NCBI RefSeq assembly: GCF_044647545.1
Contig: NZ_CP172818.1
DNA: 64,000 nucleotides
Reading direction: 5' to 3' (one strand)
Source: Escherichia coli
Lineage (GTDB): Bacteria; Pseudomonadota; Gammaproteobacteria; Enterobacterales; Enterobacteriaceae
Positions 26,040 to 26,534 of the stretch are shown one piece after another (within the stretch, counting starts at the first letter, position 1; every line of letters starts with the position of its first letter). The notes under the pieces are model-generated. The model was not told where the DNA came from. It did not search any database and saw only the letters and a program-made list of their open reading frames with translations. The translations under genes were made by a program, and so were the position numbers.

Positions 26040-26534
26040 ATGAGCCATGTCTCGTTGCAGAATTTTGAAAACGGAGCCGGACGGTACGCTGGAGGTGGTA
26101 GCCGAACAATACAACACCACACTGCTGGAAGTAGTGAAAGATCTGCCCTCCTCTACCATAGTGTCAGGCGATAAATTCGATACTGTCTGGGATACCGTCT
26201 GCGAATGGGGCAACGTCACCACGTTAGTACATACTGCCGATGTAATCCTCGAATTTAGCGGCGAATTCTGCCTTCGGGTTTCCACCGCCACGGCTATTTC
26301 AACCTACGCGGAAAGCACGGCATGTCCGGGCATATGAAAGCAGAAAACTGCACACATATTGCCTTGATCGAACGTAAATTTATGGGCATGGACACCGCCT
26401 CTATTCTCTTTTTCAATAAGGAAGGCAGCGCCATGCTGAAAATCTTCCTCGGCAGGGATGACCATCGTCAGCTCCTGAGCGAACAAGTCAGCGCCTTCCA
26501 TGCTCTGGCAGCATCGTTAAAGGAACACGCCTGA
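26040..26534 (+). pseudogene. chuX: heme utilisation protein ChuX, two frameshifts
   Basis: MSHVSLQ start in frame 0, body (LKTEPDGTLEVVAEQYNTTLLEVV...) in frame +1, C-terminus (ELPSGFHRHGYFNLRGKHGMSGHMKAENC...KEHA) back in frame 0. Confidence 0.6.

Follow-up and report, generated by a model that had tools for sequence, protein, structure and literature searches.

In a 64,000-nucleotide stretch of an Escherichia coli chromosome (RefSeq assembly GCF_044647545.1, contig NZ_CP172818.1; hereafter the window), the heme uptake locus chu/shu lies between dctR and yhiD at 21.4-29.0 kb and contains a disrupted copy of chuX, also called hutX. This copy is 495 bp long, as is the intact gene of E. coli FDAARGOS_497 (NZ_CP033850.1), whose annotated intact locus served as the main reference for chu, and it sits between chuW/hutW and chuY, collinear with the annotated locus of that genome. 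Pfam profile PF06228 matches two separate open reading frame (ORF) fragments of chuX, with E values of 8e-12 and 5e-16. Judged by this profile, by a solved structure and by its place in the operon, the underlying gene is assigned to the ChuX/HutX family. It thus agrees with ChuX/HutX of the known chu/shu system (chuS, chuA, chuT, chuW, chuX, chuY, chuU, chuV) in gene, position and length, but differs from the intact form in carrying three indels of -1, -1 and +2 in a setting where the other chu genes are also broken and chuS is missing. The features of chuX, the shortest of the seven affected chu genes, are the following.

26040 to 26534, plus strand: chuX/hutX remnant, heme utilization cytosolic carrier (Pfam PF06228, reference alignment and tblastn)
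26057 to 26063, plus strand: 5' micro-cluster of an A>G substitution and two 1-bp deletions, the A of CAAG and the T of TTTTT (reference alignment)
26172 to 26174, plus strand: first frame-0 stop codon within the shifted segment (ORF translation)
26266 to 26267, plus strand: 2-bp TT insertion, GAA[TT]CTG, outside a homopolymer (reference alignment)

An initial annotation, made from the letters alone, had described chuX as beginning and ending in frame 0 with a central segment readable only in frame +1, and this description is borne out. When reference ChuX is searched with tblastn, amino acids (aa) 9-77 fall in frame 1 and aa 77-164 in frame 3, and the start ATG at 26040 is also in frame 3, so the homology follows the path 0, +1, 0. 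Alignment to the reference allele confirms that indels are present: the 5' micro-cluster, with deletions at about 26060 and 26063, moves the homology to frame +1, and the TT insertion at 26266-26267 brings it back to frame 0. The alignment that needs the fewest changes at the 5' site has an A>G substitution and two 1-bp deletions that are distinct from each other. What had been called a compensating pair is consequently a set of three indels rather than two, although their lengths do sum to zero.

This sum does not restore the gene. No full-length ChuX is possible because frame 0 has stops at 26172 and 26256 (the second at 26256-26258), which leave the ORF broken despite the claimed compensation; translation from the ATG terminates after 44 aa, and where an intact ORF of about 164 aa should stand, the homology passes through frames 3, 1 and 3. 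Repair of the three indels in silico yields a full-length protein whose sole differences from the reference are N35D and I99M and which matches the ChuX structure of E. coli O157:H7 (PDB 2OVI, 2OVI_A) over aa 1-164 with an E value of 1.8e-106. Nor are the paired indels unusual, as had been supposed. When three indels are drawn from the locus's own size distribution, their lengths cancel out in 9% of trials and add up to a multiple of three in 26%, and the net-zero sum in chuX is unremarkable because the local indel density is high. The compensation is arithmetic only; it is a coincidence of three indels and is neither functional nor selected. More generally, a compensation-like frame pattern is no evidence of selection when private indels occur throughout the neighbourhood. 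A further suggestion, that the indels sit in homopolymers, holds for both chuX deletions, which fall in short runs (AA and TTTTT), but not for the TT insertion.

The initial annotation covered two genes only, and the informative fact is a locus-wide pattern set against pristine flanks. The chu features outside chuX are listed here.

21369 to 29006, no strand assigned: degraded patch comprising the entire chu island, namely chuA', chuT, chuW, chuX, chuY, chuU, chuV and the intergenic DNA (reference alignment)
23765 to 24674, plus strand: chuT remnant with six 1-bp deletions and one 1-bp insertion (reference alignment and tblastn)
21368 to 21371, no strand assigned: junction of a 1394-bp deletion, ...CTGGTGTGA|ATATTCAGG... 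(reference alignment)

Compared with the best reference, the island shows about 62 indel events alongside about 69 substitutions, which amounts to about 130 small differences in 7.6 kb. Most of the indels are single-base changes, 26 of them deletions and 20 insertions; the remaining ones span 2-4 bp. All seven chu genes are broken and their neighbours are intact. The stepping of chuT through frames 2, 1 and 0, also proposed initially, proved correct, as tblastn places ChuT aa 1-130 in frame 2, aa 130-169 in frame 1 and aa 170-304 in frame 3; three -1 deletions within 22 bp of this gene (23913-23934) likewise cancel locally. At the left border, a clean 1394-bp deletion takes out chuS entirely, together with 257 bp at the 3' end of chuA, with its junction directly after the dctR stop codon, which is retained. 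This 1.4-kb deletion could be genuine, or it could reflect an assembly join. At the other end of the island, the end of chuU is fused to the start of chuV as a single 335-aa ORF (27379-28386) through a 1-bp insertion at 28188, and chuV then breaks at 28381, past the fusion.

The proper control for such a locus is the contrast between flank and locus measured against near-identical relatives, and here that contrast is extreme. The genes directly outside the island, yhiD, hdeB, hdeA, hdeD, gadE and mdtE, have zero differences. In comparison with ST648-type genomes (ST, sequence type), there are 131 events in 7,638 bp of chu versus 4 differences in the remaining 55,431 bp of the window, outside three patches (the chu island and two others described below), a contrast of approximately 240-fold (Fisher p 1.7e-113). 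Had chu decayed neutrally and at the rate of the genome as a whole, the neutral positions of the flanks should show about 100 substitutions; they show 2.

The changes are also superimposed on a recognizable allele. In a six-way alignment of the window with the ST648, UTI89, O157:H7, YL3 and O99:H6 alleles, this copy agrees with ST648 at 364 of the 380 columns that are polymorphic among the five reference alleles, and among the 170 columns where it differs, 165 are private to it. Natural chu alleles are 38-277 substitutions apart and have only 0-4 gap columns between them. On the evidence of this alignment, the copy is an ST648-type allele underneath its private changes.

The private changes do not have the character of spontaneous mutation in E. 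coli. Substitutions and indels occur at about 1:1 (69 versus 62), while even in a mutS E. coli line small indels amount to about one fifth of substitutions and are concentrated in repeats (PMC6116381). Only 20 of the 62 chu indels lie in runs of at least 3, so that the homopolymer suggestion fails for the other 42; deletions of 1 bp show a modest enrichment in such runs (46% versus 16% expected). Both in its ratio and in the placement of indels outside runs, the spectrum fails the spontaneous E. coli pattern. The events are moreover strongly clustered. Neighbouring events are separated by a median of 5 bp, 56% fall within 10 bp of one another versus 16% expected, and of the 53 clusters that they form, 18 contain a mixture of 3-10 substitutions and indels over 4-45 bp. 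The 5' site of chuX is one of these complex micro-clusters. No gain of inverted or direct matches, as a template-switch or quasi-palindrome origin would produce, was found in the complex chu clusters.

Substitutions are in addition asymmetric on the plus strand, with A>G seen 17 times versus T>C once (p 1.4e-4) and G>A 19 times versus C>T 5 times; transitions and transversions number 42 and 27, respectively. In chuA, which is encoded on the minus strand, 10 of 12 substitutions replace a plus-strand purine, as judged by eye from the event list, and the asymmetry therefore seems to be independent of gene orientation. A plus-strand asymmetry of this kind fits single-strand read error.

We looked for the broken chu ORFs in a public collection of approximately 15 billion proteins, and 5 of 10 are present verbatim. 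These include the 96-aa and 70-aa fragments of chuX and a 250-aa fragment of chuA (WP_400165084.1). Of these five, four are confined to a single contig, which is an NCBI E. coli sequence of 4,499,902 bp, while the fifth, a 124-aa C-terminal fragment of chuT, is also found on other contigs and is not diagnostic. The window is therefore a true copy of a publicly deposited record, and within this collection no independent assembly with the degraded chu alleles was found. The source chromosome, at 4,499,902 bp, is smaller than those of the closest ST648-type relatives listed (4.9-5.3 Mb). Accessory DNA could be truly missing from it or could be unassembled, and its size could be linked to poorly represented accessory islands.

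Degradation in the window extends to two further patches.

17481 to 18345, no strand assigned: second and much worse patch, between arsC and a yhiS-like gene (alignments to K-12 and ST648 references)
48150 to 48215, no strand assigned: third cluster, where a G-rich hairpin element that lies between yhjD and yhjE is scrambled by small indels and a single substitution (GGGTGAGGGGGT to GTGAT; reference alignment)

The patch at 17481-18345 is strongly G-depleted and of low complexity, and among 5,426 E. coli genomes it is unique, with a best match of 68%. Its left part of about 180 bp (17481-17663) is an indel-laden spacer downstream of arsC that contains a repetitive extragenic palindromic (REP) element and has a best identity of 84.6%; REP-type spacers resembling it are present in thousands of other E. 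coli (K-12-type) and are absent from the ST648 references, which have an ArsR-family regulator and a permease at the 17481-18345 locus. An earlier reading by global alignment of 17500-17780 as the ArsR-family gene and the permease 5' region was replaced once comparison with K-12 had identified 17481-17663 as a degraded REP-type spacer. The patch is thus also structurally different from the ST648 references. The spacer is followed by A-rich junk with a poly-A run (17663-17780) and by the 3' part of a permease gene from which bases, mostly G and T, have been lost (17780-18345; GC skew of about -0.7). Base loss is progressive until the poly-A run, and on both sides of the patch identity is abruptly 100% again. 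To our knowledge, no mutational process removes bases progressively in this manner. The degradation at 17481-18345 cannot be biological and is degraded base-calling or consensus. The third cluster is isolated in 35 kb that are otherwise identical to the reference, and the G-rich hairpin in which it lies may be a repeat.

Taken together, the degraded chu patch, including the frame shifts of chuX, is very probably locally uncorrected low-quality sequence, and thus an assembly or consensus artefact. The differences are private to one assembly, confined, indel-rich and clustered, and the same assembly has other non-biological degradation (17481-18345 and 48150-48215). This agrees in direction with the suspicion of artefact raised in the initial annotation. 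We prefer an artefact to hypermutation because of the event spectrum, the micro-clustering and the strand bias, because a plainly non-biological patch (17481-18345) lies nearby, and because the alleles are unique to one assembly; the degradation of REP and hairpin elements argues in the same direction, as short-read polishing is known to fail in repeats (PMC11232133).

The resemblance is to residual errors of long-read assemblies, with which this case shares indel-rich, clustered and confined differences in a remaining chromosome that is near-perfect. As with errors that short-read polishing cannot reach, REP or G-rich hairpin elements are the site of some of the patches. The shift of chuX out of frame and back would then be one sample of locally poor sequence in an otherwise accurate ST648-type assembly. 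The degraded stretches would have been built from very few error-prone, long-read-like reads, with an error of about 1.7% in chu and far worse at 17.5-18.3 kb, and would have missed the correction that the rest of the chromosome received. This could occur if there was no accurate-read coverage or if reads had no unique mapping there. The hypothesis that the degraded DNA is what a K-12-like reference lacks fits the two large patches only loosely. If the sequence is artefactual, the chuX that the strain really carries is probably an ST648 allele that is intact or nearly so.

Several observations weigh against this interpretation. The patch nearly coincides with the chu island, as it starts at the dctR stop and ends 18 bp short of yhiD, which low coverage at random would not produce, and unlike the repeats in which polishing fails, the island is single-copy here, so that multi-mapping is no explanation. 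Given island-matched borders and a single-copy island, an island-specific difference in coverage or polishing must therefore be assumed. The error profile is also unlike that of a well-covered nanopore consensus, for which an indel to mismatch ratio of about 40:1, mostly in homopolymers, has been reported (PMC11232133). Here the ratio is about 1:1 and approximately one third of the indels lie in runs of at least 3; the profile is more like that of raw reads, and the chu sequence looks like raw or very low-depth reads. An association of chu clusters with Dam (GATC) or Dcm (CCWGG) sites, examined as a nanopore methylation signature, was not significant (4 versus 2.1 expected and 2 versus 1.6 expected, respectively). 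Finally, the clean chuS/chuA deletion could be a real inactivation, after which real decay is conceivable.

In the alternative that survives best, the chu island, already disabled by the chuS/chuA deletion, was hypermutated or decayed in a strongly localized way in a small-genome (4.5 Mb) ST648-derived lineage, with chuX a true pseudogene whose zero sum arose by chance. In its favour, the events are held to one functional unit with biologically meaningful borders, chuS and the chuA 3' end were lost in a clean deletion, the source chromosome is small relative to the relatives listed, and transitions exceed transversions. It would nevertheless require a local rate at least about 240-fold above that of the flanks. 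The 1:1 ratio, the mixed micro-clusters and the non-homopolymer indels are unlike known E. coli spectra, a template-switch signature is lacking in the complex clusters, and the strand asymmetry is seemingly indifferent to gene orientation. Furthermore, the same assembly has a base-dropped, poly-A patch beyond any mutational process, and the alleles occur in a single assembly only. We consider this alternative improbable. A form of it in which the approximately 130 changes are real and an accessory heme-uptake island in a genome-reduced, ST648-derived E. coli was hit by island-confined and strand-biased hypermutation that gave micro-clusters of mixed substitutions and indels and left the surrounding chromosome unchanged, we regard as very unlikely. 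Were the changes true, they would imply an unexplained island-specific mutagenesis, against which the evidence is strong.

Less likely still is ordinary slow pseudogene decay, or the import by recombination of an old, decayed chu locus. Seven broken chu genes beside intact neighbours do have the look of a classic dead operon, and in this the island is like the pseudogenized operons of host-restricted Escherichia and Shigella, where a whole operon is dead and its neighbours are intact. Real operon decay is accompanied by a matching neutral divergence of the flanks and consists mostly of substitutions, insertion sequence elements and homopolymer slippage. Here, unlike in those operons, the flanks are identical to those of relatives and the events form complex clusters at a ratio of about 1:1, which is far too many indels per substitution for either slow decay or import. 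Neutral decay of chu at an equal rate was rejected by the flank contrast (2 substitutions versus about 100), and import of a foreign or ancient allele by typing against the five reference alleles, since the match to ST648 at polymorphic sites and the private nature of the differences are not those of a foreign allele.

The chance that a ChuX-like protein is still made, by functional compensation of the frameshift or by programmed ribosomal frameshifting or recoding, is close to nil and this candidate was rejected: the 495-bp length is kept and the homologous path 0, +1, 0 is stop-free with 2 aa changes, but plain translation meets the two frame-0 stops already described, two precisely positioned recoding events would be required, the best identity to this copy among 2,236 complete E. 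coli genomes with chuX is 98.6%, the references examined have an uninterrupted 495-bp coding sequence, the 96-aa shifted ORF is found on one contig only with no conservation of the frameshift in relatives, and every neighbouring gene as well as the intergenic DNA has the same kind of indel.

The artefact reading has consequences for use of this assembly. Pseudogene calls in its chu locus are unreliable, including the 250-aa protein annotated as a 'TonB-dependent receptor plug domain' protein (WP_400165084.1), and inferences of heme-uptake loss, of genome reduction or of chuA-based phylotype drawn from it are unreliable as well.

Outside the degraded patches, a few isolated differences occur in the window. 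Between the two large patches (18339-21369), the sole differences are two substitutions and an in-frame 3-bp deletion (TTA) at 19395, the latter in a low-GC, yhiS-like hypothetical gene (18654-19874). Positions 1-17500 of the window show one difference only, a 1-base deletion of C at position 12, just before a T7 run, relative to strain Ecol_881; it falls within the 3' part of a gene with a DUF4049 domain, and this gene extends beyond the window start.
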